DNA of 64,000 nt from a virus, in IMG/VR virus record IMGVR_UViG_3300032770_000014, positions 1 to 64,000 of that record; one strand, given 5' to 3'. Below, piece by piece: positions 3,417-54,113 of the stretch (position 1 is its first letter; every line of letters starts with the position of its first letter). The position numbers were made by a program, and so were the translations under genes. A model generated the notes under the pieces. The model did no database searches and was not told where the DNA came from. It saw only the letters and a program-made list of their open reading frames with translations.

Positions 3417-4454
3417 TTGATGAGTTCTTGGTCTAACGCGCCGATAGCAAACGCAGCCAACCAGGTTCTTCCCACGCCGGGCGTGAACCCGTGGCGCAAC
3501 CAGATGAACTTCGCGCAGATGGTGGGCGCGATCTCCAGCGAGAATCCCGACATCGACCCCAGCGACGTTCAGGTTCAGATCAACTCGATCGTCCGCGACA
3601 TCTATGACCGGCGAACTTGGTCCGGCCTGTTCATTCGTGGCCAGATCGCTACCACCGGCTTCACCGTTGGCGGCTCGGTCAACGTTACGCAAGGCTCGAA
3701 CCTCATTCAAGGAGTCGGTACCTCGTGGACCCCTGCCGTCGTCGGCCAGCAGTTCCGCCTCGGCTACAACACTCCTCCCTACAACATCACCGCCGTTGAT
3801 CCCTTCGCGCAAGTTCTCACCATCGAGATGCCGTGGGCCTCGAACAGTTACTCGACGGCTGGCTACTACATCGCACAGTATTATTACACGCTGGGGTCGA
3901 ACATCAAGTACGTGCACACCGCCAAGAACATGCTGATGGCGTGGCGGCTGCGGCTGGACTACACGCAGCAGACTCTGGACTCCCGCGACCCGTGGCGCGC
4001 AACCGTGTTCACGCCTACCGCCCTCGTGCAGATGCCGCCTGACCCCAACGGGAATTACCAAGTGGAGCTGTGGCCTGTACCTTCCATTGTTCAAGCCCTC
4101 CCATGGATTGCCTACTGTCAGCCTCCCAATCTTGTGAACGACCCTGACGCGCTGCCCCCTGCTATTCGCGCTGACATCGTAGTGGACTTCGGGCGCGCAT
4201 GGGCCAAGACCTACAAAGGGCCGAAGTGGAACAAGTACTACGACAAGCCGGAGGCAGACCGGTTACGACAGGAGGCGGAGTACAAATTGCTGTACATGGC
4301 CAAGGCTGATGAAGATCTCTACCGCCAATCGATCCTTTTCCGCAACGAGGATATTCGCGTGGCCCCAGACCTGCTCTCCGGCTACCGCAACGCGATCTGG
4401 GATTTCAATCACGGCGTTCCGGCCGGGGAAGGCAATTCGGAATGGTCTTGGTAG
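3417..4454 (+). CDS. Head-tail adaptor-like protein with inserted beta domain
   Basis: N-terminal helix pair (NFAQMV..INSIVRDIY), VELWPVP motif, inserted GSVNVTQGSNLIQGVGTSW segment. Confidence 0.55.
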   Translation: MMSSWSNAPIANAANQVLPTPGVNPWRNQMNFAQMVGAISSENPDIDPSDVQVQINSIVRDIYDRRTWSGLFIRGQIATTGFTVGGSVNVTQGSNLIQGVGTSWTPAVVGQQFRLGYNTPPYNITAVDPFAQVLTIEMPWASNSYSTAGYYIAQYYYTLGSNIKYVHTAKNMLMAWRLRLDYTQQTLDSRDPWRATVFTPTALVQMPPDPNGNYQVELWPVPSIVQALPWIAYCQPPNLVNDPDALPPAIRADIVVDFGRAWAKTYKGPKWNKYYDKPEADRLRQEAEYKLLYMAKADEDLYRQSILFRNEDIRVAPDLLSGYRNAIWDFNHGVPAGEGNSEWSW

Positions 4455-7723: not shown

Positions 7724-8905
7724 ATGCCACTTGGACTGAGAACGGTAGCGGACCTCAGTTGCGAAATTGGCTTGCACCTCCTAGAGCCATTCGTAAACCA
7801 AACCCTTGCCTCCTCCGTCAGTTCTGGCAGCGCGGTTACAATCGTCCTCAACCCCACTACCCCTCTCCCCGCTACCTCCTATCTCTATCCCGGCGCGCAG
7901 GTCGTCATAGGCTGGCAGACCAGTCCGTCCGACGCCGAGGTGGTTACTGTTCTGACCGTGGCTGCCGACGGCGTGACCTTCACGGCGAACCTGGTCAACG
8001 ATCATGCTGCAGGAGAGACGGTCTTCGGCGCCACGTTTCCTACCCAAGCCTTAACCGACCCCATTTTCACCCAATCCGAGATCGTTGGCTACATCGCTCA
8101 GGCCCAGAACGAGTTCCTGACCAAAGTCCCACTGATCCTCCAGCTATTCCCCAACCTCGAAGTCCTGATCGGCCAGTCCAACCAGACCCTCCCCGCGACC
8201 GCGATCGAGCTGGAGCGCGTGGCTGTGCAGTCCAACCCGGCCGCGACCCAGTTCGCTATCTCGTCTATCACGCGCAGCGGAGGTACGGTCACCTGCCTAC
8301 TGACCAGTTCCGTCAATTCCGACCAATGGACCGCAGACCTCCCTATCCAAGTCTTCGACGTGACTGACTCCACGTTCAACTCCACCGCGAACTCGACCTT
8401 CCTGCTCGCCTCGGTCTCGTCGGATGGCTTGACGCTGACCTGGCCGCAGGCAGTAGCGGATTCCTCCAGCAGCGGCGGCGTGGTCTCCCGGCCTATTCTG
8501 ACCCGGCTGTACGAGTCTGCGCAGGAGCAGATCGCGCTGAACCAGCCGTGGGGATTAACCAGTCCGGTACCGACGAACTGGTGGGAAGATCGTTCAGGAA
8601 TTTACGGATGGGGCGTCTCGCCAGTACCACAAAGCAATAACTGGATGGAGTTGCTGGCGAGCGTCAGGGCGAGCGAGAGCCTGACCCTGCTGTCGGGATT
8701 CCTTGTGCCGGATGTGTTCGTGTACGCGATCAAATGGCGCGCGCTGGCCTACTGCTGGGCGAAGAATGGCGTCCAACGCAGCCCGACGATGGAGAAGTTC
8801 GCCAAGGGTAAATTCGACTTCTACTGCCTCCTCGCTGATCGCTTCCTGCGCAACACGATCCAGAAAGTCGGTCAAGCCGGTGCCGCTGCGGGAGGGAACT
8901 TCTGA
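7724..8905 (+). CDS. Head-tail adaptor-like protein with two inserted beta domains
   Basis: FTQSEIVGYIAQAQNEF and WGVSPVP motifs; inserted HAAGE and SITRSGG modules. Confidence 0.55.
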   Translation: MPLGLRTVADLSCEIGLHLLEPFVNQTLASSVSSGSAVTIVLNPTTPLPATSYLYPGAQVVIGWQTSPSDAEVVTVLTVAADGVTFTANLVNDHAAGETVFGATFPTQALTDPIFTQSEIVGYIAQAQNEFLTKVPLILQLFPNLEVLIGQSNQTLPATAIELERVAVQSNPAATQFAISSITRSGGTVTCLLTSSVNSDQWTADLPIQVFDVTDSTFNSTANSTFLLASVSSDGLTLTWPQAVADSSSSGGVVSRPILTRLYESAQEQIALNQPWGLTSPVPTNWWEDRSGIYGWGVSPVPQSNNWMELLASVRASESLTLLSGFLVPDVFVYAIKWRALAYCWAKNGVQRSPTMEKFAKGKFDFYCLLADRFLRNTIQKVGQAGAAAGGNF

Positions 8906-9360
8906 TGCCCGCCCTCGCCTCCAACCCGCTCCCGATCCAGTTCACCCCCTTTACCAAAAAGCACTTTGAGACGGACGCCGGGATAGCATTTGTTAACCAG
9001 ACCTTGAGCCAGTTGACGACTACCATTAACGCCCTCCTCGGCTCTGGCGGCCCGACCCTACTCCCCTCCGGCATCGACGTCCAAGGCGCGAAGGTCACTG
9101 GCTTGGCAGCGCCAGAAAGCGAATCAGATGCCGTCTCCCTTAGTCACGCGCAGGGGAACTACTCCGCGCCTGCCGTGGCCCCGCAACTGGACCTCGGCGG
9201 CAAGAACACCCTCAAAGGGCTGGCGGCGGTTTACTCTGTGGTGCAGCCGGGGATTGGGACATCGACTACGCTGACCCTGGCGAAACTCACTGGGGGCGGC
9301 AGCAGCGGATCGATCACGATCAAGAACGGCGTGGTGACAGCTTTCACGCCGCCGAGCTAG
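8905..9360 (+). CDS. Virion structural protein (short fibre/needle-like)
   Basis: KVTGLAAPESESDAV fibre-type motif and GSITIKNGVVT C-terminus; coupled to upstream gene. Confidence 0.5.
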   Translation: MPALASNPLPIQFTPFTKKHFETDAGIAFVNQTLSQLTTTINALLGSGGPTLLPSGIDVQGAKVTGLAAPESESDAVSLSHAQGNYSAPAVAPQLDLGGKNTLKGLAAVYSVVQPGIGTSTTLTLAKLTGGGSSGSITIKNGVVTAFTPPS

Positions 9361-9370
9361 GGAGGAACAG

Positions 9371-9418
9371 ATGGCCGAGCAGAAGCAATATGAATCCAAG
9401 CCGTTCCTGCTTATTTGA
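9371..9418 (+). pseudogene. Orphaned original 5' end of the 10362..14531 tail gene
   Basis: GGAGG RBS then MAEQKQYESKPFLLI-stop, 10/12 identical to MAENKNYESKPF at 10362. Confidence 0.8.
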
Positions 9419-10256
9419 ACCGGGAGGCTTGTTGGAAAAAGTAGGCGAGTAGGTCTTGTAGGCCAAGTGCCTTGAATGAATCTACTACGGCTTGGTATTT
9501 GGAAGCATTTTCAGGAAAGTTCAATCTAGAAAACTCTCTAAAGTGCAGGACAGTAACAATGTCTCTAACTATGGCTGCGGTCTCCTTTTCCTTATATCTG
9601 CCAAGGAACATCTTCTTTCCGTCAACACAAATCTGTGCTTTCCACTTTCTAGTCAGTGTTTTACCTTTTTTGGATAGTATCCATCTATCATTGTTGCGTA
9701 GCTGCGATACACCAATGAACCCCGAAGTGCTATCCTTTCGCAATCCTCTATTTCTGGAATTTTCCTTGGCGTTTGCAAACCTCAGATTGCTCATGCAGTT
9801 GTTGAGTCCATTGCCATCGATGTGATCGACTTGGCGAGTCTCAGTACCCATCAGGAACTGGTGAAGTGTGATGTGGCTTTGCCCTGTCTTGGAATATGGT
9901 CTATAGCTACCAGATGCCGCGTAGAACCCGCACTTTGTATTGTTTTTTACTGCGTACCAGTTTAGAGCGATCGCTTCTGCATATCGGGACTTGTCTACAA
10001 CAGTGACTTGGTTTTGGGTAAGAGCGATAAGACGAATATCTGGATCGTCTGGCTGAACTATTGCGGGTCGAAGAACTGCTCTCGTAGTCACCACTCGTCG
10101 AACTGGCCTTGGTAGTCTTTTGTGGCAATCAAGGCAATGTAGCGCGTGTGGGCTTTTGCGGTTGTGACACGCAGGGCAATAAGAAATTTCACATGGATAT
10201 GCATGAGTTGTATACTTGCGTTGCGGCTGGGCTGTCTGTTCTCGCAGACTGCTCAT
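9411..10256 (-). mobile_element. Free-standing HNH-AP2 homing endonuclease gene
   Basis: VDHIDGNGLNNCMSNLR HNH motif, AP2 domain SGFIGVS..WKAQI..LGRY, AT-rich, antisense to operon. Confidence 0.9.
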
Positions 10257-10308
10257 CGGTCACCTCCGATGGGCGCGGGTCTGGCCGCGCTTCCTTTTAT
10301 TCTATACC

Positions 10309-10331
10309 TACCGTTGGACTTGCGCTAGACT
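10309..10331 (+). promoter_or_regulatory. Putative late promoter (TACCG-N12-TAGACT)
   Basis: Repeated motif between HNH gene and tail gene. Confidence 0.55.
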
Positions 10332-10361
10332 GTTGCCGATTCATGCAGGATGGAGGCGAGA

Positions 10362-13300
10362 GTGGCTGAGAACAAGAATTACGAGTCTAAGCCATTTGTT
10401 TATAGTTCTAGGGGATTGGGTGCCCGCTGGGAGGTTGATAGAGTTCCGGAGGGATATTATTTACAGAATCTGAATTGTTTTGAGCGCAGCGAGAATTCCC
10501 TCAGCAGTCGGTATGGAACTTCTATCATTGATCGCGATCCGTATGGTACGCCAAACCCCCAAAATTACTTTTTCTCGGCAGAGGTAACATCTCTTGCACG
10601 ACTTGTATACCAGTCGAACTCGTTCCGCTATGCTGGTCTTGCCGATGGCACGTTGTGGCGGCGTACAGGGGATGCTCAAGGGCCGTACACGCAAATTTAT
10701 TCAGGACTCTCTGGTAATTCTTTTGAAACAATTGTGTCTAGTTGTTATGAGACATCTCAGGCGTTTATTTTTATAGCTGATGCTCTAGCCTCTATTAAGG
10801 ACATGGGAACCGGAACTCCGCAACTCTGGGGGATTGATCCTCCTTCCTACACTCTGAACGTTCAGCCATACGCGCCGCTGCTGACCATGATCGACTCGTT
10901 CTCAGCCTCTAACACCTATGCCACGACAGGGGTGACAAGCTGGGAGTGGGTGGACATCGAAACGCTGACTGTCAACTCTGGGCAACTCGTGACGGATTTC
11001 AGCGAGTTCTTCAGCCTTGGGTACGGCGGGGGGTCGCCATCGACGCGGTATCCGACCAGTGGAAGTCTGGGAACAGGCACAATAACCGCTGCTGCTCTTC
11101 CAGGCGAGGTGACCACAAAATACTCAAGCGCGATCAGCGGGTTCGCCTCTGTGCCTCTGAGCGCAGTGGATGAAGTCACTCTGTATGTGACGCTGGAAGG
11201 CAGCTTGTCCTTTCCCATACCCGGTGTGCCGCCCCCCTACGGATCAGGATTCATTGGATTTCAGTACAGCGTGGATGGCGGGGTCACTTGGCAACCGCCT
11301 TCAGGGGATGGCTACACTTTCGTAAGCAAGGACAACACTACTACCCAGACGCTTTCCCCGACAGTGGTCACATTCGCTGTTCAGACGTCGAATCTCAGCT
11401 TGGTGCAATTGAGATCAATGGCTATCGCGACGAACCCAGCAACAGCATTCGCTGTCAACGCTACCAGCACCATTGCTTCCGTTTATGCCGTGGTCTCTAC
11501 GCAGGGCGGCACTGGGTCCGTAGCGGCGGGTATGGTCTCGCTCTTGAACAGCAACGTTCCCGTCTACGTCCCTATCGCGCAAGTGACCGCGACCAACTAT
11601 GTCGGCGACCTGTACACCGCCCTGCTAGTACAGACCACCGCGCCTCACAACCTCTCTGCCTCGGACACGATGGCGATCTACGCCTCCTCGAACGATCTGG
11701 TGGACGGGTTCTACCAAGTCTCCTCCATAACTGCTTCCAACTCCTTCCTCATTCCATTTGAGTCCGCGGTCGAGATTGGAGCGACAGGAGGCTATCTTAC
11801 CTACGCGACCTCGGCCAGCAACACTTACTCTTCCATTCCCAATGCCTGCGTAGTAAACAATTTCTACAGCCTTTCAATCTCGCAGATGTCGGCATGGGGA
11901 TTCAATGAGTGGGTTCCACCAACCGTGACCTCCTTCCCGTTCGGCTGCTGGAGCGGCGAGGTCACTGGGGCCAGTGCGACCGGGACGGTTGGCAACACCG
12001 TTGCGCTCGACCTGAGCCTGAACGACCAAGTAACCGACAGCGACCTTATTGTTCTCACTCTCGCTGTCTCGGAGCCGCAGAACGTCGAGCAGATCCAGTT
12101 ACAATTTTTTGTTGGAGATGGAACAGACAATTATTATTCCGCGTTCATTTCTCCAGCCTATTACCAAGGCTCACTGGTCGGGCAAGAGACTGCTTACGAC
12201 GCAACGCAGAACCAGATTCTCGCCGATGCGCTGGGCCTGATCACCGGTCAGACTCCGGGCACCACCGCTGCCCAACTTCAGCCTACGAACATCTCTACCG
12301 GCGCTGGATCGTGGCAGGCCTGTCTAATTCCCCGCGGCAATTTCCTGCCTGTGGGACTGGCGGGCACGGCGGGCCTCGACTGGTCGAACATCACCAGTTG
12401 GCAACTGACGGTCACGACCAACGCCAATACCACTCCCTCGGCCGGAGTCACATTCTCCTGCAACGGCCTCTACCTGCAGTGGGGCTACGGACCGTCCTCC
12501 TTTGCTGGCGTGGGCTACGACTGGCGACAGACTTACTACAACGCTAACACCGGGACCGAATCGTCTCCTTCACCTGAGATGCAGTACAACCAGCAATACG
12601 GCTATCTCGCTTCCACCACCGCGCCGTTCTTCCTGCGCCAGGCTGCGCAGGTCACTGGCCAGTACTCCTCCGATCCCCAAGTCACCCATGTCCGGCTGTA
12701 TCGCCGCGGGGGGATTCTGGCCTCGAACTGGTTCCAGTCAGTTCAAGCGCCGAACATAACCGGGGGCGGTCAGTTCCTCCTCAAGGATGTAATCGGGGAT
12801 GCCTATCTTGAACAGGCCCAACCTCTAGCTCTGGATAACGATCCTCCGGTCACGTCGAACCTCGTTACGCCGATCCAGACTACTCTAGCGGCCGGGACCA
12901 CGCTCTCCAGCCTTAGCTCGATCTACTCAACCTTCTTCCCGCAGATTGTGACCGTCACCCAGTCCGACGCCGTGTTTGTGCCGAACATGCTGGCCGAGAT
13001 CGGCAACGCGAACAATCTGGAAGTGGTGGCGGTTATTGTCGGTGGGACAGGCCAGTTCACTGCCATTCTTCGTCTCGAACATAATCAGGGTGAGCCGGTC
13101 AGCGTTCAGGCTACCCCCCGCCAAGCCTGCTCCCTCTGCGCGCTCTCGAACCAGGGCGGCGTGACCCAAGTCTGGCTGGCGGGCGACCCGAACAATCCGC
13201 ACTATCTCTACTACTCGAAGCCGGGCTACCCGGAGAATTTCTCTCCTGCCAATTACATTGCTGTCTCCGCGCCCGACGATCCGATTATGGCCGTCATTAA

Positions 13301-14531
13301 CTGGCGCGGGACGATCGTGGTCGGGACGACGAAGACTTGGTACATCATCGTTGGAGGCGCGAAACCGTACCCGCAGCCAACTGGCGCCGCGCACGGAATG
13401 GCATCCTCCTCATGGACTCTGGTCGAGGGCGAGATTATCTATCTTTCCCAAGACGGTCTCCGTGCCTTCTCCGGTGCCGACGGCCAGTACATGACCCTCC
13501 CTGTCGAGTGGATGTTCCGTGCCAGCCCGGCGACGATCGTGCCCAAGCTGAATCCTGACAGCTACTCCTCGACGGTCCTTTGCCAGTACCAGAACCAAGT
13601 CTACTTCGGGTTCACCTCAGCCTCAAACTCAGTCAGCACGGGCAACGGCGCGATCTATCGTCTGCGCTTCGACTCTGAGTACAAGCGGTTCGGCCTCGAT
13701 GACGTTCCCGCGACGGCGATGCTCTGGGAGCAGGATACCAACGCCTTACTAGTCGGGAAACAGATCAGTGCGACCGCTTATGCCGTCGTCCAAGACTGGG
13801 TAGGCGACTATGACGACGGCGGCTGGAACGCAGAAGGGACCGCGCTGATCCAGACTCCGATTCACCTCATCTCGCAGACTCCTTATCATGACCTCGGCAA
13901 GCCGCACTTTCCGAAGCAGTGGAACATGCTGGAGGGGGACTACAACACCGAGGGCCAGGACATCACGACAACCCTCTGGTTCAACACGGAGCCGACGACC
14001 TCGCTTGCTCTGCCCTCAGCCAACACGGGAACGCAGCGGCAGAAGGTCCAGTACCAGATCCCCTCCACCACCGCCTCCAACTCTCAAGGCGTTCAAGCCT
14101 ACGCAATGTCCATCCAGCACGACATGTACGTGACCGTGGCACCGACCTTCTATCAGGAGGACATGTATGCGGTCGTGCTGGCGGATTATCGGACCTCGTG
14201 GGACACCTACTGGCAGGGCACAGAGGGCGACCTGCTCGGCATCGAGCCCAAGAACGTCTACTGCGACTACACGGCTACTGCGCAACTGGTTGTCTCGATC
14301 TTCGCCGACGGCAACGACGCGACCCCTTACTATATCGACGACTTCACGCTGATCCCGCAGGCGAACCGGTCGGTGGTCCGGGTCCAGCTTCCAGCGCGGA
14401 AGGGACGCCTGTGGCGGATTATCATCACCAGCAGTCAGCCGTTCCAGCTCTGGGCACCGGTTCGGGTAGAGGTCAAGCAACTCCAAGAAGGTTCCGGGTT
14501 TGAGGAAAGGGCATTCCCGGTCTACCAATAG
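10362..14531 (+). CDS. Large tail protein (nozzle/stabilisation protein-like) with inserted domains
   Basis: GTG start after GGAGG; beta-propeller-type motifs (YLYYSKPGYPENF, IIYLSQDGLRAFSG), TESSPSP motif; position between adaptors and ejection genes. Confidence 0.65.
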   Translation: MAENKNYESKPFVYSSRGLGARWEVDRVPEGYYLQNLNCFERSENSLSSRYGTSIIDRDPYGTPNPQNYFFSAEVTSLARLVYQSNSFRYAGLADGTLWRRTGDAQGPYTQIYSGLSGNSFETIVSSCYETSQAFIFIADALASIKDMGTGTPQLWGIDPPSYTLNVQPYAPLLTMIDSFSASNTYATTGVTSWEWVDIETLTVNSGQLVTDFSEFFSLGYGGGSPSTRYPTSGSLGTGTITAAALPGEVTTKYSSAISGFASVPLSAVDEVTLYVTLEGSLSFPIPGVPPPYGSGFIGFQYSVDGGVTWQPPSGDGYTFVSKDNTTTQTLSPTVVTFAVQTSNLSLVQLRSMAIATNPATAFAVNATSTIASVYAVVSTQGGTGSVAAGMVSLLNSNVPVYVPIAQVTATNYVGDLYTALLVQTTAPHNLSASDTMAIYASSNDLVDGFYQVSSITASNSFLIPFESAVEIGATGGYLTYATSASNTYSSIPNACVVNNFYSLSISQMSAWGFNEWVPPTVTSFPFGCWSGEVTGASATGTVGNTVALDLSLNDQVTDSDLIVLTLAVSEPQNVEQIQLQFFVGDGTDNYYSAFISPAYYQGSLVGQETAYDATQNQILADALGLITGQTPGTTAAQLQPTNISTGAGSWQACLIPRGNFLPVGLAGTAGLDWSNITSWQLTVTTNANTTPSAGVTFSCNGLYLQWGYGPSSFAGVGYDWRQTYYNANTGTESSPSPEMQYNQQYGYLASTTAPFFLRQAAQVTGQYSSDPQVTHVRLYRRGGILASNWFQSVQAPNITGGGQFLLKDVIGDAYLEQAQPLALDNDPPVTSNLVTPIQTTLAAGTTLSSLSSIYSTFFPQIVTVTQSDAVFVPNMLAEIGNANNLEVVAVIVGGTGQFTAILRLEHNQGEPVSVQATPRQACSLCALSNQGGVTQVWLAGDPNNPHYLYYSKPGYPENFSPANYIAVSAPDDPIMAVINWRGTIVVGTTKTWYIIVGGAKPYPQPTGAAHGMASSSWTLVEGEIIYLSQDGLRAFSGADGQYMTLPVEWMFRASPATIVPKLNPDSYSSTVLCQYQNQVYFGFTSASNSVSTGNGAIYRLRFDSEYKRFGLDDVPATAMLWEQDTNALLVGKQISATAYAVVQDWVGDYDDGGWNAEGTALIQTPIHLISQTPYHDLGKPHFPKQWNMLEGDYNTEGQDITTTLWFNTEPTTSLALPSANTGTQRQKVQYQIPSTTASNSQGVQAYAMSIQHDMYVTVAPTFYQEDMYAVVLADYRTSWDTYWQGTEGDLLGIEPKNVYCDYTATAQLVVSIFADGNDATPYYIDDFTLIPQANRSVVRVQLPARKGRLWRIIITSSQPFQLWAPVRVEVKQLQEGSGFEERAFPVYQ

Positions 14532-14944: not shown

Positions 14945-15325
14945 ATGTCCGAGCCCGACCAGAATGAAGAGAACAAGCCAGTAGCCGTCATGCCTGCCCC
15001 CACCCCCACTCCTGCCGCAGCCTCCCCCCGTAAATCCCTGCTGACGGAAACCTTCGAGATCATGCCTAACCCGTCCGTTGACGAGATCATCCGTACGATG
15101 GCACGGATGGCCAACTTCTGCAATCTCTACGCCGCCGAGGCTCTGCGCGCACGGGTCGTGACTGCCGCCAACCCCTGCGTGATGGCCCTGATGAACGTAG
15201 CGGCCAACCTCGAACAAGGAGCGCAGGCACAGCGGCAGCAACTGGCAATGGCTGCGGCCGGGCAGTTCGTCGGCGGACCGCCGCCGGGCGGAGGCATGCC
15301 GGGGACGCCGTTCAGGATGAATTGA
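14945..15325 (+). CDS. Hypothetical protein
   Basis: AAGGAG RBS, 126 aa. Confidence 0.6.
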   Translation: MSEPDQNEENKPVAVMPAPTPTPAAASPRKSLLTETFEIMPNPSVDEIIRTMARMANFCNLYAAEALRARVVTAANPCVMALMNVAANLEQGAQAQRQQLAMAAAGQFVGGPPPGGGMPGTPFRMN

Positions 15326-15336
15326 AGGAAGGGCAA

Positions 15337-15471
15337 ATGATTTCTGATCGTACTGCCACCGATCTTTTTGTTATCTTTGCGGCAATATATTGCTTGTTTT
15401 GTGGTTACTTACTCGGCTGGGTGTGTTGCTTGGAAGCCATTAGGAGTGGTAAATGGAAGATGAGGAAGTAG
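15337..15471 (+). CDS. Small membrane protein (44 aa)
   Basis: MISDRTATDLFVIFAAIYCLFCGYLLGWVCC.. one hydrophobic helix, AT-rich. Confidence 0.45.
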   Translation: MISDRTATDLFVIFAAIYCLFCGYLLGWVCCLEAIRSGKWKMRK

Positions 15472-15689
15472 TTAATATGAAACCTGATCGTACACCAACA
15501 GAGGTTTTGGTACAAATGATGGAAGAGTTCGGCAAGGACGAGCCGGCCGAACTTCTCATTTGTTACAGAGGGCATGCCGGGCAATTTTGCTGGGACTGTT
15601 CAAGCTCAAACTATGTGTCACAGTTGGGACTGGCTCACATGACTATTATAGCCATTGAAAATGATCTCAAGAAGGCGCAGAGGGCTTGA
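15453..15689 (+). CDS. Hypothetical protein
   Basis: AGGAG RBS, AT-rich 78 aa ORF. Confidence 0.55.
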   Translation: MEDEEVVNMKPDRTPTEVLVQMMEEFGKDEPAELLICYRGHAGQFCWDCSSSNYVSQLGLAHMTIIAIENDLKKAQRA

Positions 15690-15699
15690 ATTGAGGCAG

Positions 15700-15978
15700 A
15701 TGGGAACTATGCCAGATCGCAGAAATAAACATCCCAAGCGCACCCCAATACCGGCGAAAAAAGACGACGATGATCTGCGTAATTTTGTAGAGGGGACGAT
15801 TAGAGGATATGCCGTACAGGGTTTTGACAGGTTTCTTGTCAGGATCACGAAAAAGATCAAAGATGGCGTGTTCCCTGTAGGCGTCAAGCACGATCCTACC
15901 CTAGAAGTCAAAATAGAGATAGTGGACTTCGTGGATGGGGAGGTTGACATTCTTGTGGGTAAGTCATCCAAACAGTAA
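15700..15978 (+). CDS. Hypothetical protein
   Basis: GAGG RBS, AT-rich ORF. Confidence 0.5.
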   Translation: MGTMPDRRNKHPKRTPIPAKKDDDDLRNFVEGTIRGYAVQGFDRFLVRITKKIKDGVFPVGVKHDPTLEVKIEIVDFVDGEVDILVGKSSKQ

Positions 15979-16002
15979 TGCCGATGTATTTCCAGACGGC
16001 CA

Positions 16003-16806
16003 ATGACTATCGACGAGATTCTCTTGCAACCCGATGCGACCTTAGATGATCCAGTTGGGTTATGCGCAAGGGGAGAGTTCCGCTGGGGTCCGCTGCAAGC
16101 TATCCTCTACGACCCACACCGTGCCGACATCTTCCCGCAACCTTTCATCTACACGCTCTATGAACGCAGTCGGCTCTCCGGCCAACGCCATCCCAAGCCG
16201 CTGGACCTCGACAATCGCGCCACCTTGGGATCACTCATCCCACTGTTCTGCGGTATGACCAATCTCGGACCAGATGCCGTCTGCAAGTACTTGGCCGAGC
16301 GTGCGGTCTGTGTCGTGGGAGAGTGGCGCAAGGAATCAGCCATCGAGTACGTCGGGGAGGAGAGTCGTCTGGAAGCCACCGTAGTCGATAAGGACGTCTT
16401 CTGGCCTCTTGGCTACTGCTTCCCCTCCACCCCTGTCACCATCTCCCCCCTCTCCCTGACTGGCATCCCCTCCAACTCAGTCTTCGCCGGCTACACCATC
16501 TTCTCGGAAATCTGGCGCAAGCCTCAGCAGACCGTCCTGATGTATCTGGGCTTGGCTTGGCTGTTCCATACCTTCAAGCTGGTCGCGCTGCACGGGAGCC
16601 GGTACGTCACGAATCATCTGACCGCCCGGTGGACCCAGCAATTCGGATTCCGCGATTGTGGTACGCTGCCTTGCTGCATGAACGGCGAACCGGGTGGGGA
16701 GCTGGTGCCGGGGGTGTTCTCGACGTTGCTGCGGAAGGACTTCGAGGAGAAATTGCGGGAAGTGCTGGCGAGGGCGAGGGAGATGGCTATCCCGACTTCC
16801 TTCTAG
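16003..16806 (+). CDS. GNAT-fold protein (RimJ/RimL-like pattern; podoviral assembly-factor position)
   Basis: EIWRK..LAWLFHTFKLVALHG..NHLTARWTQQFGFRDCG pattern; precedes ejection proteins as T7 gp13/P22 gp14 do. Confidence 0.6.
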   Translation: MTIDEILLQPDATLDDPVGLCARGEFRWGPLQAILYDPHRADIFPQPFIYTLYERSRLSGQRHPKPLDLDNRATLGSLIPLFCGMTNLGPDAVCKYLAERAVCVVGEWRKESAIEYVGEESRLEATVVDKDVFWPLGYCFPSTPVTISPLSLTGIPSNSVFAGYTIFSEIWRKPQQTVLMYLGLAWLFHTFKLVALHGSRYVTNHLTARWTQQFGFRDCGTLPCCMNGEPGGELVPGVFSTLLRKDFEEKLREVLARAREMAIPTSF

Positions 16807-16809
16807 CCT

Positions 16810-16832
16810 TACCGCCCCGATTGGTATACCCT
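16810..16832 (+). promoter_or_regulatory. Putative late promoter (TACCG-N12-TACCCT)
   Basis: Repeated motif; shares CTAGCCTTACCGC with the copy near 5063. Confidence 0.6.
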
Positions 16833-16840
16833 TGTCGCCG

Positions 16841-17869
16841 ATGGGCTCCCTTTCCCAAATCGTGCCGGTTCCCCTCTGGCTGTCGCCTTCGGCGGTACGA
16901 ATGCTTCCTGCTGAATCCACGAAGGTTCGGCCTTATGGGGTGATCTACAAGATTACGAATCTGGTGAATGGGAAGATTTATGTGGGAAAGACGAAACGGA
17001 AGTATCCTACAGCACGCTGGCAGGAACACAAAAAGTGTGCGATAGAATACAACGGCCACCCGCGAGGAAAGACCTACTTCTATAATGCTCTTCGTAAGTA
17101 CGGTGTTGAAAACTTTCGTTTCGAGGTCATCGACCAAGCCTTTGCTAATTCTGAACTTCTTGCTAAGGAGATGTACTGGATAGCTACCCTACAAAGTACG
17201 AATCGTTGCGTTGGTTATAACAGTACCTACGGCGGCGAGAGCGGCATTCCAACTCCTGAGACGCTGGAAAAGATGCGCGGACGCCCTTGTCGCCCTGAAA
17301 CTAGGGCCAAGATCAGCGCAGCGCAAAAAGGCAAGAAGCAGCCTGTCACTGAAGCTGTACTCGCAGCATGGGCGGCACGTAAAGGTAAGACCCCAACTCC
17401 AAAGATGGCAGAACACTTTGCTCGGATGCGGACACATCCTATTGGCCTCGGAACCAAACGCACAGAAGAACAAAGGCAGCATATGCGCGAAGGTATTTGT
17501 CGATCATGGACCTCTGAGCGTCGCGCAAAAGCATCAGAAAAAGCCAAGATAAGGATGGCAGGAAAACCTTGTCCCTATATCCCAACTACTGAAGAGCGAA
17601 AACGGTTGGGCGCACTTCAAAGACTACGTTGGGAGTCCATGTCTCCAGAACAAAAGACAGCAGAAAAGCTTAAGATGTCCCTTGCACGAAAAGGGAAGAA
17701 GCAGAAACCAGAAGCTGTAGCAAAGCGCGCAGCGTCAATTAAGGCTATATGGACTCCAGAACGTCGCGCAGCATGGGCAGAACGTATGCGTCAAAGCGGC
17801 GTGGTTAAGAACATTCGACAAGCAGGACGTGCACCTTGGTCACGTCGTTTTGAGAAGGAGGTTGCATAA
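16841..17869 (+). mobile_element. Free-standing GIY-YIG homing endonuclease with NUMOD3 repeats
   Basis: GVIYKITNLVNGKIYVG..R..EH..KYG..GYN motif; ETRAKISAAQKGK repeats; AT-rich; start codon uncertain. Confidence 0.9.
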
Positions 17870-18432
17870 TGGGCGGCGGATCAAAGGGTGGAAACGCTAC
17901 AGCCGAGAATGCCCAGACAGGCTTAGCTCAGCAACTTACTACCTTACTTGGACAACAACAAGGGGAAAGCTCTCAACTTTTTAATTTAGCCTTCCCTGCG
18001 ATGTCCCAAGCGACCGATTTTTATTCGGGATTGGCAAGTGGTTCCCCCGACATCATCTCCCGGCTCATCGCCCCCGCCGCACAGCAGGTCAGCCAAGCCA
18101 CGGCCGGGGCCAAGCAGAACATCCTCCAGACCTCGCCAGCGGGAGGGGAGCGGAACTTGGCTCTCAGTCAGGCAGATGTCAACCAGGGAGCGCAACTGGG
18201 CGCGCTGGCCAGCCAAGGCTTCACTAGCGCGTTCAATAATTTGGCGCAGCTTGGCACTTCCGGTGTGGGACAGGGAATGAGCGCGGCAGGCACGGCCATC
18301 GGTGCGGGTCAGGCAGCCGGCAACCAGTGGTCCCAGATCGTGCAGGAAAACATCGCGCAGAAGGGTGCCAGCCTCGGAGCGTTCGGACAGTTGGCCGGAG
18401 CAGGGGCATACTTAGGAGCGGCGTTTGTGTAA
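17869..18432 (+). CDS. Internal virion/DNA ejection protein (small)
   Basis: MGGGSKGG start, Gln/Ala/Gly-rich, hydrophobic Gly-rich C-terminus, AAGGAGG RBS. Confidence 0.6.
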   Translation: MGGGSKGGNATAENAQTGLAQQLTTLLGQQQGESSQLFNLAFPAMSQATDFYSGLASGSPDIISRLIAPAAQQVSQATAGAKQNILQTSPAGGERNLALSQADVNQGAQLGALASQGFTSAFNNLAQLGTSGVGQGMSAAGTAIGAGQAAGNQWSQIVQENIAQKGASLGAFGQLAGAGAYLGAAFV

Positions 18433-40751: not shown

Positions 40752-41153
40752 CTAGTCGTCGGTGGCCTTCATGCCGCGCTGCAAGTCGTCTAAGGCTGCA
40801 CGCTCGCGAATAAGGATTGCTGTGCCGTGCTGGCTCCATGTTGCGCGGACTCGCCCAACGCGAAATAACCACACAATATCTTTTTTGCGCTCTGCGATCT
40901 GGCGCTCCCGCTCCACGGTGAAGAGGTAGGCGGCGTGGATAGCTTTCGCTCTTCCTTCAGGGCTATCATCCTCCTGCCATTCTTTAAAAGAATTGTCATG
41001 CCACTTGGCGTCTGCTGGCATGAGGAATATGCCGATATGAAATTGGTCAGTTCCATAGGAATCAAGATCACGAACCCACGTTCTGACGTATTTCCACCGC
41101 GCTTTTATGTACTTCCGCTCCTGCTGCTCGGTAAGTGGCTGCTGCTCAATCAT
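40752..41153 (-). CDS. Hypothetical protein
   Basis: Coupled ORF in early gene array. Confidence 0.55.
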   Translation of the reverse strand: MIEQQPLTEQQERKYIKARWKYVRTWVRDLDSYGTDQFHIGIFLMPADAKWHDNSFKEWQEDDSPEGRAKAIHAAYLFTVERERQIAERKKDIVWLFRVGRVRATWSQHGTAILIRERAALDDLQRGMKATDD

Positions 41154-41289
41154 CGTCTTTCCCTACCTTTCTTATAGCCGCCTTCAAGTCCTGAAGATAG
41201 CAGATAATCACGAACGCGAGTACGCCGCTCCATACAAATAGGAGCACGAACGAGCAAAAGATAACATTCGCCAATCTATCCAGCGTCAT
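41146..41289 (-). CDS. Small membrane protein
   Basis: One TM helix; GGAG RBS. Confidence 0.5.
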   Translation of the reverse strand: MTLDRLANVIFCSFVLLFVWSGVLAFVIICYLQDLKAAIRKVGKDDD

Positions 41290-41701
41290 GCTCGGCTCCC
41301 TTCGCTTGCACGGAACGGGGGCTGTAAGAAGTGCGTGGATTACAGCAATTTGCCGCATTAATGGAATCCACGATAGACTGCGGATCGTTCTCTTCATACC
41401 ATTTGCGATCTCGCTCCTGTTCGACTTCTTGGAATCCGCCAGATTCCCCTAAAAATTTTTCGCCTCGTGGTTGGTCATCACCCTCTATCACATCTTTCTC
41501 GCTGACCGGCGCTTTCAGCCGCGCGTTCTCAGCCTCTAGCTCGGTGATGCGCAACCGTAAATCAGCGATGCCCTTGGTATGTTCGATAAGTTCGCCTATC
41601 TCTTCATGGTTAATTCTTATCGAAACACACTCATCTTCACGAGCAAACTTACTCCTCAATTCAAGGGCTTCCAAGATAGTCTCAATCGGCGTCTCAGTCA
41701 T
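41276..41701 (-). CDS. Hypothetical protein
   Basis: ITELEAENARLK coiled coil; overlap-coupled. Confidence 0.55.
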   Translation of the reverse strand: MTETPIETILEALELRSKFAREDECVSIRINHEEIGELIEHTKGIADLRLRITELEAENARLKAPVSEKDVIEGDDQPRGEKFLGESGGFQEVEQERDRKWYEENDPQSIVDSINAANCCNPRTSYSPRSVQAKGAEHDAG

Positions 41702-41882
41702 GCTTCCCTTCCTTCTGCTTCTGGATGTTCCGCCATGCGTCGGCCCATGCTTGTCGATCCTGTCGATTGTATCCAACGCGTTCGCCTAAGAGCCTACCAC
41801 CGGAAAACACACAGATGGATCGAATGCTATATTCAAGACGGGCATCCGGGTAGACCTGCTTCACTCTCTGCTCTGAAGTCAC
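41694..41882 (-). CDS. Hypothetical protein
   Basis: VKQVYPDA..AWADAW motif; coupled. Confidence 0.6.
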   Translation of the reverse strand: MTSEQRVKQVYPDARLEYSIRSICVFSGGRLLGERVGYNRQDRQAWADAWRNIQKQKEGKHD

Positions 41883-42319
41883 TTCCGTTCTCCCTTCTGC
41901 CCTAGCAGGCGAGTGCTAACCCTAGCAATCTCTGCTGCTATCCACGCTGGTGATTCTTTTCGCAGCCGCTCATCGTAGTGGCGCAGAGCGGCGAGCATCC
42001 CCGCTTCACCACTGCGTCCGGATGGGCCAATCTGCTGCTCAAAAGTATCCAGACACTCGCTCACCATATCCTGCTCGATCACGCGATGCAAAAAAGCAGG
42101 CGCGACGAGCGGCTCAGCGGGCGATTCATACTTTTTACGCGCTTCGCCAAAAGTGCGCGGCTCGGTAGCGAGCGCGGTCTGGCTGCATAGCTCTAAATCT
42201 TTAATTCGTTTCGCAAGGTTGATTACCGCCCCTGCGATAATCTCTGGCTCATTTGTATGGTTAAGTATTTCCCTCACCACATCCAAGTCGCCATACATCA
42301 CTTCACTGAGTTGACTCAT
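41879..42319 (-). CDS. Hypothetical protein
   Basis: Coupled ORF, 146 aa. Confidence 0.55.
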   Translation of the reverse strand: MSQLSEVMYGDLDVVREILNHTNEPEIIAGAVINLAKRIKDLELCSQTALATEPRTFGEARKKYESPAEPLVAPAFLHRVIEQDMVSECLDTFEQQIGPSGRSGEAGMLAALRHYDERLRKESPAWIAAEIARVSTRLLGQKGERK

Positions 42320-43861: not shown

Positions 43862-46800
43862 TTATCTTTTCAGGTCCACTTCTGCCATCTCGGCCCAGTT
43901 CTTGCCCACGGCGCAATCGACCCCGATCCACAATCCCCCTGGCGCCGCCGGGCCGCGCAATACCTTGCTGGGAGACTCCAGAATCGGCCGTACCCGCGCC
44001 AAGTGTTCCTCCAGCAGCGCCTCGTCGAAGTGGAACAGGAAACTGTCGTGAATGTTATCGCAGAGCCCGTACCTGTCCACTAGCCCTTCCCGGTCCAGCT
44101 CCTTCATCTTCTCTCTGATATGCCCGAACGCGATATTGCTCAACCAGAACGAAATGGCCTCCTCGCCTTGATCGCCGTGGCCCCACTCCGACTTCCTAGC
44201 GTCCCAGCGGAACACCTCGTAGTAATGCCGCAAGTGTCCAAACTCGGTCTGTAGGAAGTTCTGCTTATGAGCTAACTCCTGTACCCACTCCTGCCACGCA
44301 AACACCTTGGGGAAAACCTCCTTATAAGATTCCAGAATGGATGTCGCCTCGAAGAGTCCAGAGAAAAATTCTATATACCTCGTATACAATCCGTTGTCCT
44401 TGAGCCCGTTGCCTATTCCCAAGCCGGCGTGCTTGACCTTGGAGTCGCGTATCTCCCTGAACTTCTCATTCGACTTCAGCCACTTGCATCGCTCCTTCAG
44501 TTCCTCATCGGACTCGTGTAGGATTTCTTGCACACGCCACAACTTCAGGAAGTGCCCGGTCATGATGCTGTGCATGTCGATGCGTGCGAGGCGGATATAA
44601 TTCGGGTCGTTGGCGAGGTAACCCAGGGTCAGGACGTGGCAGGACTTGAAATCCCATTCGCTCAGGAGTTTCCCCGGCTCGGCTGCGATCATGGATCGCG
44701 TAGCCTTGGCCAGCCGCCCATGCTTGGGAAAGTTCTGAATGTTGGGATTGCGACTGCTCAACTGTCCAATAGCTGTGGCAAACGTGAAAGTCGTATGCAC
44801 TCGACCATCTGCGTGCGGCCTGAACCCTTCCACGTAAGTTCCCTTGGCCTTTCCAATTTCACGGCACTCGATCACCTTGACGTAGAAATTGTCCTTATAG
44901 CGCGCAGATAACCGCATCAACTCCTTCTTCCCGGTCGTCTTCTTGCCATCCTTGGACTGAGGGATCTTGTGCCGTCGAGCGGTCATGTAGGCCATCAATT
45001 GAGGAGATGAGTTGGGCGAGAACTCGTAGACCCGGCACCAGCGGCGGTCAGTCGAACCAGTCGAGCCCTCCGAGCCCTCCGAGAACGGACGGAGGTCGTA
45101 GAAGTACCTCTCGCCCTCTTCCAGTTCGCCGTCCTCGTTCTTGGTCGGCGGCTCTTGGAACCGCTCCTGCCTGACTTGGGTCAGCTCGTTCTCCGTGATG
45201 GCCTGCCAGCGAGCCAGCTTCCCTGCCCTCTCTGCCTTCTCGCGCTGGGCCTTGGTCAGGGGCCTCTCTGTAGGCCCAGTGGCAGGAAGGGGCAATTCCG
45301 GGGCAGCAATGACCCTCTCCAGCACCTCCTTCAGCCCCGCAGGGACCGTCTTGTACCCGCCCTTGGGATGGATCTTCCGGGCCTCGTCAGGGAACTTCTG
45401 GTCCAGCTCCGCCCTGGCCTCCCGCTCCGCCTGCTCGAACTCTGCCCCCAACGCCATTCGCTTCTGGTCGTTTATCGGCAACCCCTGATCCTCCATCTTC
45501 GCCAAGATTGGCCGTACCTGCTCGACCTGAGCGACATAACCAGCTGACTGCCGACCGGGAACCGAGTCCCACCAAATCTTGCGGTCCTCCATCGTCTTGC
45601 GCGTGGTCCGGTAAACGCGCAAGGAAGCGTCCGTATCCACAATTCCATAGAATTCCAGACACTGATCGTTGTAGTGCTTCCACGGAAAGGGGAACGAGGA
45701 GAAGGAGGCCGAGAACTGAAGGTGGGCTGGCAGGTCCGGCTGTGCGAAGTGGTGCTGCTGGAGGGTATCATGGACCGTACCAGTAGGCAGGAAATAAGAG
45801 GGATCTGAGAAGTCACGCTCCCCGACCGCGCGCAAGACCTTCTGGTCGAACAGCCAGTAGTTATGACCGCACTTGGGCAGCGATAGTCGCAGCAGCCACC
45901 TCGTCGCTGCAATCCCGTCCTGGTCCCACTGCAAGGCAATCCCTTGACCCGGCTCGATCGAGAACTGACTCAGCCTGACTTGCGTGTCCGTGAACCCGTC
46001 CGTCGCGTCCTCGTCCAAGGAGGCCGATTCGTAGGTCTCGATGTCATGGCTCAGGCACAGGTACGACCTCTCCCGTTCGTCAGGGCTCAGGGCCAGCCAG
46101 GCGTCCGACCGCGCTTTGACGTCCCGGCAGAACAGGTCGATCTCGCGGCGGGTCGGGTGGAGCTGGTAGCGGAGGGAGTGACGCCGGAGCCAGCAGGTTA
46201 AGTCAGCCTGCACTTGCTGCTTCCGCTTCTGCTCCCAGTCCGAGTAGTTCGCGTCCCAAGCATCCGGGTTATCCACTGGATCATAAGGACCGTCGTAGTT
46301 CTTCAGTGAGAGGTCCGGCAGGTCCAGTATGAACTGCTGATCCCTCCCCGCCGCCACGTTCACGGCCCGAGCGATATCCCTGGCCAGCACCCCCGTAAGG
46401 TGAATGGCGCCGCGGCGGAGGAAAGCTGGGTGGTAAGTTGGGACAACCAGCAGGGGGTCGGCCTCGTGGTCCCTCCCGGCTGCCTGCTCGTAGACCTCCA
46501 GCGCGCGTAAGACATATCCCCGGAGATGCCCTACCCCTCGGTGCTCTCCTGACAGCCCGGTCATTGTCCGCGTCGGCACGTTCCCCAGAGTCAGCACGAC
46601 CTTGGGCTTGAACTTTCTCAAGAAATCCAATACGTTCTGTTCGCAATGCTGGATCGCCTCGTACTCGTAGCTGGCTCCATCGAGCGCGTTCCCAAAGGGG
46701 CGGCAGAAGATTGTGTTGGCGATAGCGAACTGGTCGCGAGCCAGCCCTATCCGGCGGATAGTACGTTCGAGCACCGATCCGCTGGCTGCGTATGGCCGGA

Positions 46801-49237: not shown

Positions 49238-50050
49238 TTAGCGCCCTTTCGGCCCGTACTCCACTCCACTGGCCTTGGCTGACCCGACCGCGAAATACCC
49301 GTTGATCCTCGGTCTGGCATGCAAATGGACCTTCCCGAGCTTGGTATCCACGTCCATATCCGGAATTGAGTTGCCCTTGGAGTCCGGTGGGAACCGGTGC
49401 TGGCCCAGCACTCTCGGCAACCGCTCCCCGGCCGTGTCGAACCGCTCCTGGGTGTCCTGATCCGGACTCCCTTCCCAGACCGTCTCGACTTCCAGCATGG
49501 GCTCGGCGGCCGTGGCCTTGAAGAACTCGTCGAGGAGGGTCCGGGCCGTGATCCTGGCTGGCAACTGGACCTTCAACTGGGCCAAGATCCAAGCCAGCGG
49601 AATCGCCCCGCCCTTTCTGGAGTCAGCTCGGGTCGAGACAAAGTAGTCAGTCAGCGAAATCCCGTCCCACTTGCCACTCGCGTCCACGACCGTCGCATCC
49701 AGGGCCGTGAATGCATAGACCTGGCCCCCCTTGTCGGTCGCGACCTTGTACCGCGCCGGCTGTCCGTCCTGACCCTTGACGTCGCGCTGCTTGATCTTGA
49801 CCAGCCACCGTCCGTCCGGTAGCGGCGGAGGCGCGGCATACGGGTCCACGTCCGCGTGTGTGTCCATCTCCTGCATGAGCAGGTTCGGATCGTCGAGGTT
49901 GAGGACCGGCGCGTCGAGGCCCGAGGCAGCAGACCCTCCGCCGCCAGCGCCGTCCACCTGCTGGTCCATGTAAATCGGCTGGGCGAAGTCGTCGGCGGTG
50001 CTGACCGTCGAGGGCTGGCCGGAGCCGGGTACTGCTGTCGAAGTTGCCAT
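49238..50050 (-). CDS. Putative single-stranded DNA-binding protein (DUF669-like)
   Basis: PPLPDGRWLVKI motif, OB-like pattern, downstream of AAA and nuclease genes. Confidence 0.55.
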   Translation of the reverse strand: MATSTAVPGSGQPSTVSTADDFAQPIYMDQQVDGAGGGGSAASGLDAPVLNLDDPNLLMQEMDTHADVDPYAAPPPLPDGRWLVKIKQRDVKGQDGQPARYKVATDKGGQVYAFTALDATVVDASGKWDGISLTDYFVSTRADSRKGGAIPLAWILAQLKVQLPARITARTLLDEFFKATAAEPMLEVETVWEGSPDQDTQERFDTAGERLPRVLGQHRFPPDSKGNSIPDMDVDTKLGKVHLHARPRINGYFAVGSAKASGVEYGPKGR

Positions 50051-50112
50051 ATCAGTAAATCTCCTTTGATATCGTTTCGATGGTGCTTGGTTAACGTCAG
50101 ATTCGCTGCGAA

Positions 50113-50418
50113 CTAGAATTTCATTCGCTCGAACTTCTCTACTGCTGCTATAGCATCTGCGGTCTCAGCGAACAGAACAGCTTGCATTGCCGAATGAAAT
50201 GCCGAATCTACAGCATCCGTCACTTGATCCCTTAACTTGTCGCAATGCCTATTCCAGTCTGCCAATATCTTCTTTGCTTTCTCCATCTGTGCATTGGCCC
50301 GCTTTACCTTGGGAGGGATAGGCGGAATAGGAATTTTCTTATCGCCGTATCGGCTTGGTTTAGCCCGTTTAGCTTCATCGAGTCGGTTTAACAAAAACCG
50401 TTTTTGAGATGAATTCAC
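50113..50418 (-). CDS. Hypothetical protein
   Basis: AAGGAG RBS, AT-rich ORF. Confidence 0.6.
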   Translation of the reverse strand: MNSSQKRFLLNRLDEAKRAKPSRYGDKKIPIPPIPPKVKRANAQMEKAKKILADWNRHCDKLRDQVTDAVDSAFHSAMQAVLFAETADAIAAVEKFERMKF

Positions 50419-50523
50419 GGCTGAGTACTCCTTTCTTGTGGCCTAGCTTCTGGCATACTGTGTTGCTCTGTTGCCAGTCGCCGCCGTTGTTTGCGTCGTT
50501 ACCGCCTCCGTTACCGCCCTCCA

Positions 50524-50958
50524 CTATTGCTGCTCGACGACTCTATCGGTGACCCTGACTTCCGGGTACTCAAAGCTCTGTATCCGGTTCTGCTGTTGCG
50601 CTATAGACGACTCTGGCATCTGGCGACTGGCCTGACTAGCCGTCATCTGCTGTCGCAGTTGCCTGAGCTGCCATGCCACGTACTTCTGCACGCTGGGCTC
50701 ATACGGCGCCTGACTGGCCTGCTGCTCGTACCACTCGACAACATCCTTGGGTAGGGTGATGGTGATGGTCCGCGAGTTAGAATCGGCGTCGTTGCTGGCT
50801 GCCGGCTTCGCCTTGCCTGGGCGATGCGTCCGACGGCCAGAGGTCCGGGCCGGAGCTGGCGTCTCGGCCGAGGCCTGCGAAGCCAGCGATGACCCTGCAG
50901 CGCCGCTGACCTGGTTGCCGATTCCCGCTCCGGGGAGCGTTCCTGTTACTGTAGACAT
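50524..50958 (-). CDS. Hypothetical protein with RHH/BrnA-like segment
   Basis: TITITLPKDVVEWYEQQA; AGGAGG RBS. Confidence 0.55.
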   Translation of the reverse strand: MSTVTGTLPGAGIGNQVSGAAGSSLASQASAETPAPARTSGRRTHRPGKAKPAASNDADSNSRTITITLPKDVVEWYEQQASQAPYEPSVQKYVAWQLRQLRQQMTASQASRQMPESSIAQQQNRIQSFEYPEVRVTDRVVEQQ

Positions 50959-51023
50959 GAGATAGGTTTCCTCCTTTCTTGAGAGATGATGGTGCTTTAG
51001 AAACTCAACTCGTCCACGCGACC

Positions 51024-51599: not shown

Positions 51600-51639
51600 T
51601 CTGATTCCCCCTTCTTCGCAACCCCTCCGTTGCCGTCTG

Positions 51640-53874: not shown

Positions 53875-54113
53875 TTGACTGACTCCTCGGCCGGCTCCCC
53901 CGCCTGTCCCAGCTCCCCCAGATTCTGCGTCAGCCACTTATGCAGACACCCCTCCCCGCACAGGATATCCCCGCCCTCGTGCGCCTCACTGAGCGAGTAA
54001 CTCAGAATGACAAGGGACTGGCGCCCGCCTCCGTGCCGCCCGAGGAACCAGTGATTGCAGGCCTGCCTGACCGCTCCGCAGAGGTCGCACTTGGCTATGG
54101 TTTCAATGGCCAT
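53871..54113 (-). CDS. Zinc-finger hypothetical protein
   Basis: CDLCG..NHWF..LCGEGC. Confidence 0.65.
   Translation of the reverse strand: MAIETIAKCDLCGAVRQACNHWFLGRHGGGRQSLVILSYSLSEAHEGGDILCGEGCLHKWLTQNLGELGQAGEPAEESVK

Follow-up and report, generated by a model that had tools for sequence, protein, structure and literature searches.

Why does the gene for a large tail-complex protein begin twice, with an antisense endonuclease gene between the two beginnings? The question is raised by a 64,000-nt stretch of viral DNA (hereafter, the window) that spans positions 1 to 64,000 of the IMG/VR virus record IMGVR_UViG_3300032770_000014 and forms part of this 93.6-kb record. A short copy of the tail-gene start is followed on the opposite strand by a gene of the HNH-AP2 type, after which the tail gene starts anew and is complete. 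As judged from the sequence, this arrangement very probably arose by intronless homing of the HNH-AP2 gene with co-conversion of the 5′ end of the tail gene.

The first of the two beginnings lies directly behind a small resident gene of the structural module (8905–9360, plus strand; an open reading frame (ORF) of 151 amino acids with a GC content at third codon positions (GC3) of 0.776), which has no assigned family and for which a search of viral contigs gave no confirmed match. Direct reading of the sequence places the TAG stop codon of this gene at 9358–9360, followed by the resident Shine–Dalgarno (SD) sequence GGAGG (9362–9366, plus strand) of the original tail-gene start. An ATG at position 9371 opens MAEQKQYESKPF (9371–9406), which continues with three junction codons (LLI) and ends at a TGA (9416–9418). 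The resulting stub ORF (9371–9418, plus strand), that is, 12 resident tail-gene codons, the junction codons and the stop, overlaps the 3′ end of the HNH gene by 8 nt. The original prediction, which had been made from the letters alone, located these features correctly within a few bases; the start codon is at 9371 and not at 9361. It had also pointed to the likeness between the stub and the N-terminus of the working tail gene, and our rereading agrees: 10 of the 12 residues are identical with differing codons, and by manual count the DNA matches at 25 of 36 positions. The stub is the split-off resident start and encodes at most a 15-residue peptide.

The second beginning consists of an SD sequence, GGAGG (10352–10356), and a GTG start codon at 10362 (together 10352–10364, plus strand), which were read directly and agree with the alignment of homologs, since this starts at that very residue. 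The GTG opens VAENKNYESKPF... (the same ORF start is also written VAENKNYESKPFVYSSRGL...) and is separated from the HNH gene by a spacer of 105 nt. The tail gene that follows (10362–14531, plus strand; 1389 amino acids) is intact and full length, with relatives covering 100% of the protein and homologs aligning from residue 1. It is preceded by an SU10-type adaptor gene. Its product had no match in Pfam, PHROG or PDB (the last searched by profile), and an atlas search with the protein returned weak, sub-threshold leads to phage tail proteins.

The base composition changes sharply at this locus. Across ~9400–10800, the GC content is 0.39–0.53, compared to ~0.60 in the surroundings. Within the tail gene, GC3 has one change point, at codon 161 (nt ~10845; 0.416 before, 0.724 after; log-likelihood gain 29), which bears out the original prediction that about the first 450 nt of the restarted gene are AT-rich. 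The HNH gene has a GC3 of 0.445, as against 0.75–0.78 in the two genes upstream. Because of the drop in GC, the change point and the matching GC3 of the HNH gene, we regard ~9407–10845 (no strand assigned) as a foreign-looking tract of ~1.44 kb, made up of the HNH gene with its leader, the spacer and tail-gene codons 1 to ~161, the remainder of the tail gene being resident. These data, together with HNH-less control loci (see below), support the view that the working start, the ribosome-binding site (RBS) and ~160 codons are a foreign allele with a different codon spelling.

The gene between the two beginnings (9411–10256, minus strand; 281 amino acids) is intact and free-standing. Its coding part runs from 10256 down to 9414 and its stop codon (9411–9413) is located only 4 nt past the twelfth codon of the stub. 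By itself, the window protein matched PHROG 99 'HNH endonuclease' at 8e-31 and Pfam HNH_3 at 3e-5 (23.9 bits, slightly under the curated cut-off of 24.8), did not reach the Pfam threshold for AP2, and resembled I-HmuI as well as the AP2 domain of WRI1 (1.2e-3 for WRI1 in a sequence search). When the protein was aligned end to end with 11 homologs from related contigs, the profile of this 12-member family matched the plant AP2/ERF domains of WRI1 (1.4e-22) and ERF1 (1e-7) as well as I-HmuI (4e-4), and the Pfam models for AP2 and HNH_3 were reached by 8 and 10 of the 12 members, respectively. The DH...N...N motif of the HNH domain aligns to I-HmuI, and the family alignment (A2) shows little or no variation at H145, N153 and N157. 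From the N- to the C-terminus, the protein has a zinc ribbon, an HNH domain that retains its His and Asn residues, and an AP2 domain. The antisense gene is thus a member of the HNH-AP2 homing endonuclease family, its product being a predicted enzyme. A second, weak HNH-like match lies elsewhere in the genome (G000:C1:74636-74809).

Relatives of the locus were collected with the tail protein as query in scans of viral contigs, metagenomes and GTDB genomes, which yielded >80 loci; blastn of positions 8900–11900 against 50,697 phage records gave no match. The closest relatives of the tail protein are P0002 at 70% identity and P0005 at 81% (partial length). In 16 nuclease-less loci (L004, L090, L092, L093, L100, L101, L102, L103, L109, L110, L112, L123, L128, L130, L169 and L170), the homolog of the upstream gene ends 0–15 nt before the ATG of the tail gene, which identifies the stub as the ancestral tail-gene start, and in L004 and L090 the stop–GGAGG–ATG arrangement is identical to that at the window's stub. 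As had been predicted for phages without the HNH gene, the 9371-type start is contiguous with the gene body in these relatives and follows directly on the upstream gene; the claim that the HNH-AP2 gene split off the 5′ end of the tail gene is therefore upheld.

Homologs of the HNH-AP2 gene, 27–33% identical across their full length, lie antisense directly before the tail-gene ATG in L106, L132, L133, L134, L145 and L156, and further homologs occupy other positions of the module in L101, L110, L121, L122, L141 and L162. All HNH matches in relatives (13 of 13) are antisense to the tail gene. Overall, ~42 distinct loci include the complete start of the tail gene, and in 7 of these the cassette adjoins the gene. 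In L106 the cassette is placed between the stop codon of the upstream gene and the tail-gene ATG, whereas in the L132 group the adaptor gene is the left neighbour and the small gene is located after the tail gene, so that filled and empty sites exist in two synteny contexts. The HNH-AP2 cassette family thus repeatedly fills the slot before the tail gene, plus a few nearby slots, in related soil phages.

If the low-GC start of the tail gene came with the cassette, it should be found where the cassette is. We measured this footprint by taking the GC3 of the tail gene's first 450 nt and subtracting that of the next 2550 nt. Among 29 HNH-less loci the difference averaged +0.01 (standard deviation (sd) 0.054, range −0.116 to +0.093). 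The cassette-adjacent loci gave −0.273 (window), −0.253 (L134), −0.193 (L133) and −0.106 (L106), and −0.077, −0.015 and +0.014 for the other three. The window is 5.3 sd from the HNH-less mean, and carriers differed from HNH-less loci with a Mann–Whitney p of 0.001, although this value is generous, to the disadvantage of our reading, because the loci are related and not independent. A low-GC3 start is clearly no general property of the tail gene and accompanies the cassette. The length of the low-GC tract in the tail gene ranges from none to ~450 nt across carriers, variation that is expected of a co-converted donor flank.

How homing could have produced the present arrangement can be sketched as follows. 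During a mixed infection, a resident genome without the cassette would have been cut by the enzyme within or close to the first tail-gene codons, and the break would have been repaired by copying a cassette-bearing donor. On the right side, homology-based resolution would have taken place ~480 nt into the tail gene, near codon 161, so that the donor's spacer, RBS, GTG and first ~160 codons would have replaced the resident ones. On the left side, the junction would have formed directly after resident codon 12, 4 nt from the stop codon of the nuclease gene, with the consequence that the resident RBS, ATG and 12 codons would be left as the stub. The stub may have originated in either of two ways. 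The left flank of the donor may have been non-homologous, which is possible because some carriers have the adaptor gene there, and may have been joined illegitimately at the break; alternatively, the donor may already have had the stub, which would then have served as the left homology arm. The insertion would be close to neutral, since the tail gene is whole and would be expressed from donor signals, and the old target, being interrupted and re-spelled, is probably such that the genome is protected from its own enzyme.

Several observations weigh against this reconstruction. L145 and L156 carry an adjacent HNH gene without a low-GC3 start, and L101 has a low-GC3 tail start (3992–4441, difference −0.207) without an adjacent HNH gene. 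The low-GC3 start of L101 may have been left by a previous conversion or by a cassette that later changed its position; an HNH homolog is located ~1.2 kb past its tail gene (9334–10128). A search of the 6 other carriers for an N-terminal stub next to their HNH gene found none, which leaves the left junction as a lone case, and blastn and tblastx of this junction (9407–9530) and of the spacer against all fetched loci returned nothing informative. Neither a donor nor a copy of the window's HNH gene with >40% identity was found among the relatives, for which reason the homing event itself cannot be reconstructed, and among HNH-less relatives for which DNA context is available, even the closest has a tail protein of just 58–68% identity. 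Cleavage by the enzyme and its target site are both putative. Finally, the tail gene is mosaic generally, with segment identities that shift between relatives. A tree of residues 161–1389 groups the window's tail protein with P0005 (99) and P0002 (82), whereas a tree of residues 1–160 excludes it from the P0002 clade (97/98); given the general mosaicism, this incongruence is supporting evidence only and weak alone.

The same mosaicism, which extends along the whole length of the tail gene family, would fit an origin of the tract by ordinary illegitimate or homologous phage recombination, with the HNH gene as a passenger or dead and the duplication as a by-product. The left junction does look illegitimate, and cleavage by the nuclease is a prediction. 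However, the low-GC tract, which spans the gene as well as its flank, sets in 4 nt past the stop codon of the HNH gene, low-GC tail starts associate with an adjacent HNH gene among the relatives, and the ORF, the HNH residues, the promoter and the leader are all intact and conserved. We therefore consider passive recombination unlikely. The low-GC start could also have another cause altogether, namely selection on translation initiation, if the HNH-AP2 protein had been domesticated as a packaging HNH protein or as a regulator of the tail gene. HNH proteins act in packaging in some phages, and the position before the tail gene recurs. AP2 domains, in turn, have been co-opted as regulators (PMC10448857). 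A domesticated gene is nevertheless difficult to reconcile with the patchy presence (7 of ~42 loci) and foreign composition of the window's gene, which adjoins structural genes and not the terminase, nor do HNH-less relatives have a low-GC start; this makes domestication very improbable.

The duplicated start could, in principle, also be an exon. In this scenario, a group I or other intron with an antisense endonuclease would be spliced out, thereby joining the 12-codon exon to the gene body. HNH genes are frequent in phage introns, and a splice from codon 12 of the stub to codon 13 downstream would yield a near-identical protein. Against this, Rfam models searched on both strands of 8800–11200 (E ≤ 1) revealed no intron, the sole match being a chance microRNA, and six cassette-bearing relatives lack any upstream exon. 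Splicing would also be unnecessary, because the downstream copy has its own SD sequence, start codon and complete N-terminus. The HNH gene lies outside any intron, with an SD sequence, an ORF and probably a promoter of its own on the opposite strand, as the original prediction of an intron-less cassette had it, and we give splicing next to no credence. Homing with co-conversion is the best-supported reading, and it is the one that we follow below.

Which part of the tract belongs to the mobile element? The cassettes of the relatives share a leader whose elements follow the same order on the nuclease strand wherever the cassette sits: a −10 box, 7–9 nt, hairpin 1, hairpin 2 and the ATG of the nuclease. 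The putative −10 box of the HNH gene's own promoter in the window is TATAGAAT (10299–10306, minus strand). It was recognized by family comparison, as cassettes of 9 relatives have a TATAAT, TAAAAT or TAGAAT box 7–9 nt before hairpin 1, with a TGn extension in 6. Hairpin 1 (10273–10290, minus strand) reads GCGCGG-N6-CCGCGC in the window, a compensatory variant of the GTGCGG-N5-6-CCGCAC of the cassette family, and RNAalifold predicts 6 pairs, of which 2 have compensatory changes. Hairpin 2 (10254–10271, minus strand; CAUCGG / AGGUGA / CCGAUG) pairs part of the SD sequence (GGAGGU, 10262–10267) and the AUG. In separate folds of 10 cassette leaders, the basis used here as the MAFFT register differs between sequences, a hairpin of differing sequence forms at the same position over the SD sequence and start codon in 9, with L106 folding differently. 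The leaders compared with window positions 10254–10306 were those of L106, L110, L121, L132, L133, L134, L141, L145 and L162. Exact-pattern scans for the leader of the window's cassette gave no close copy, and scans with the hairpin pattern of the family recovered no more than the two relatives already known and three matches by chance, which lack an HNH gene. On the plus strand, hairpin 1 and a T-rich run (10271–10292) score as terminator-like, which is suggestive. In L134 (3946–4004), L133 (1100–1158) and L145 (3940–3998), the TG of the extended −10 box corresponds, on the complementary strand, to the tail-gene ATG (CATGTTAAAAT and similar); these three loci have no SD sequence before the tail-gene ATG, and the start signals of nuclease and tail gene overlap back to back.

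The conserved unit of the relatives extends no further than the HNH promoter and normally abuts the resident ATG. Since the unit stops there, the replacement N-terminus in the window is best regarded as donor flank and not as part of the element. The original prediction had instead made the replacement N-terminus a built-in part of the cassette, a view that we abandon: apart from the extent of the unit, the tract in the tail gene varies between none and ~450 nt and the stub occurs in no sampled relative. We are doubtful about a more far-reaching idea, in which the stub and the spare start are a homing-competent design widespread in HNH-AP2 elements, with entry ~10–12 codons into the gene, the stub as the left homology arm, and the downstream gene supplied with a start and with an outward promoter that lies in the 5′ coding region of the nuclease; the TA[GT]A[AC]T hexamer described below would be this promoter. 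If true, such a design would be the equivalent in phages, acting at gene starts, of the mORF system of fungal mitochondria that is also described below.

The replacement tail-gene start was also predicted to bring its own expression signals. This applies to the new RBS and the GTG, which are clear, and less so to the promoter, because the late-promoter motif proposed at 10309 is undemonstrated and the plus-strand sites are weak consensus matches. The motif amounts to a 14-mer, TTCTAnnCnTACCG (10300–10313), that overlaps the −10 box of the HNH gene on the other strand and, in its left part, reproduces the reverse complement of this box. There are exactly two copies of the 14-mer in the window (10300–10313 and 16801–16814), and both adjoin endonuclease genes, the HNH-AP2 gene and a GIY-YIG gene (~16.8–17.9 kb), respectively. 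The two cassette-side regions align only loosely with each other. Allowing one mismatch, TTGCGCTAGA was not enriched in the window, and a genome-wide (93.6 kb) word search found no motif that recurs.

Two other sites are candidates for a tail-gene promoter. TTGGAC-TTGCGC-TAGACT (10314–10331, plus strand) may be donor-derived, as it resembles TTGACA-g-TTTGCGC-TAGAAT before the tail-gene ATG of the HNH-less L096, and the distances of the two sites to the ATG are similar (24–30 nt versus 36–42 nt); a 10-mer of the window's site was not enriched in the window. TTCACA-17-TATACT (10188–10216, plus strand; 10 of 12 consensus positions) is a sigma-70-like candidate for an outward-reading promoter in the 5′ coding region of the HNH gene, although the number of sigma-70-like sites is no higher than in shuffled sequences. 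A TA[GT]A[AC]T hexamer at −43 to −46 was present in 6 of 6 tail-adjacent cassettes examined, compared to 2 of 6 cassettes elsewhere, and this hexamer may be a promoter reading outward to the downstream gene. It lies 43–46 nt inside the HNH coding region on the opposite strand (10211–10216 in the window; L106, L132, L133, L134 and L145; also L110 and L141) and is kept over differing codons (DSS, YST, HST, KYT and QST).

Free-standing endonucleases of T4-like phages offer the closest functional parallel. SegF, SegG, SegE and MobE are known for intronless homing with co-conversion of flanks and marker exclusion (PMC2988022). The locus described here shares with the Seg and Mob genes a position between genes or at their edge, the lack of an intron, presence or absence by locus and co-conversion of the flank. 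It differs in its combination of HNH and AP2 domains, in its setting in a soil phage of acidobacterial type, in being antisense to the late operon with its own promoter, and in a left junction inside the target gene that leaves a 12-codon stub; its activity, moreover, is predicted from sequence. Leader hairpins that sequester the RBS have been described for I-TevI, I-TevII, I-TevIII, segB and mobE (PMC2988022), and folding predicts the same pairing of the RBS here. With the HNH-AP2 homing endonuclease family, as represented in PMC10448857 (Magnani et al. 2004, as cited there, and the 'IPA-HNH' proteins of ICP1 phages), our gene shares the order of an HNH and a C-terminal AP2 domain and a location beside essential genes of the phage, where exchanged sequence begins or ends. 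In contrast to that family, its identity to anything retrieved is ≤40%, it has an extra N-terminal zinc ribbon, and its two-hairpin leader is conserved.

The fate of the target gene is more reminiscent of the mORF 'gene hybrids' of fungal mitochondria (atp6 of Allomyces macrogynus; atp6, atp9, cox2 and nad3 of Glomus), in which an endonuclease ORF comes with a foreign copy of the gene part that it displaces (PMC3630166). As there, the gene in the window is whole and the native piece is an unused duplicate, with the layout mirrored at the 5′ end: the foreign copy extends from 10362 to ~10845, and the native relic occupies 9371–9406. The fungal elements sit at the 3′ end, mostly in frame and co-oriented, with enzymes of the LAGLIDADG or GIY-YIG type, whereas here an HNH-AP2 gene lies antisense at the 5′ end of a phage gene. 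Insertions that split genes are also known from phages, for instance mobE in nrdA of Aeh1 and mobA in the T4 topoisomerase gene (PMC2988022), which likewise are free-standing HNH genes within the coding region of an essential gene. In those cases, both halves are needed and reassemble, whereas here a 12-codon relic stands before a complete downstream gene. Our literature search for a phage gene start duplicated or replaced beside an endonuclease gene found fungal and organelle cases only, although the layout may have been described before.

The locus illustrates clearly, if in a fairly usual manner, how elements of this kind spread while an essential gene is left unbroken. It is a well-controlled natural example of a homing endonuclease moving part of an essential structural gene between phages, for which ~40 related loci provide both empty and filled sites as controls. 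The outcome, in this interpretation, is a chimeric tail protein without loss of function, as the intact ORF indicates. The cassettes constitute a new HNH-AP2 family in uncultured soil phages, with a conserved promoter and two-hairpin leader. Leaders of this type were shown to delay the translation of T4 endonucleases, so that the same regulatory logic would extend far beyond T4-like phages. Because the stub fixes the likely point of breakage and joining within a few bases, the target of the enzyme is directly testable. For annotation, the example serves as a warning: a short "orphan" ORF whose sequence repeats the beginning of the following gene marks endonuclease-driven replacement.

Some further observations concern the tail gene and its genomic setting. 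Of the four relatives of the tail gene from GTDB, two (L169 and L170) are in metagenome-assembled genomes labelled Acidobacteria or Acidobacteriaceae; this is a weak hint to Acidobacteria as the host phylum, and the related soil phages are probably acidobacterial. In P0018 (L123:2089-7341 and L124:3057-8309), the tail-protein homolog is encoded by a gene that is ~1.1 kb longer and has Pfam matches to an intein splicing domain and a LAGLIDADG endonuclease, so that in other phages the tail gene hosts a second, unrelated kind of selfish element. Within the window, additional 1-kb bins with a GC content of 0.50–0.54, in a genome of ~0.59, are found at 15001–16000, 17001–18000, 41001–42000, 44001–45000, 50001–52000 and 54001–55000.

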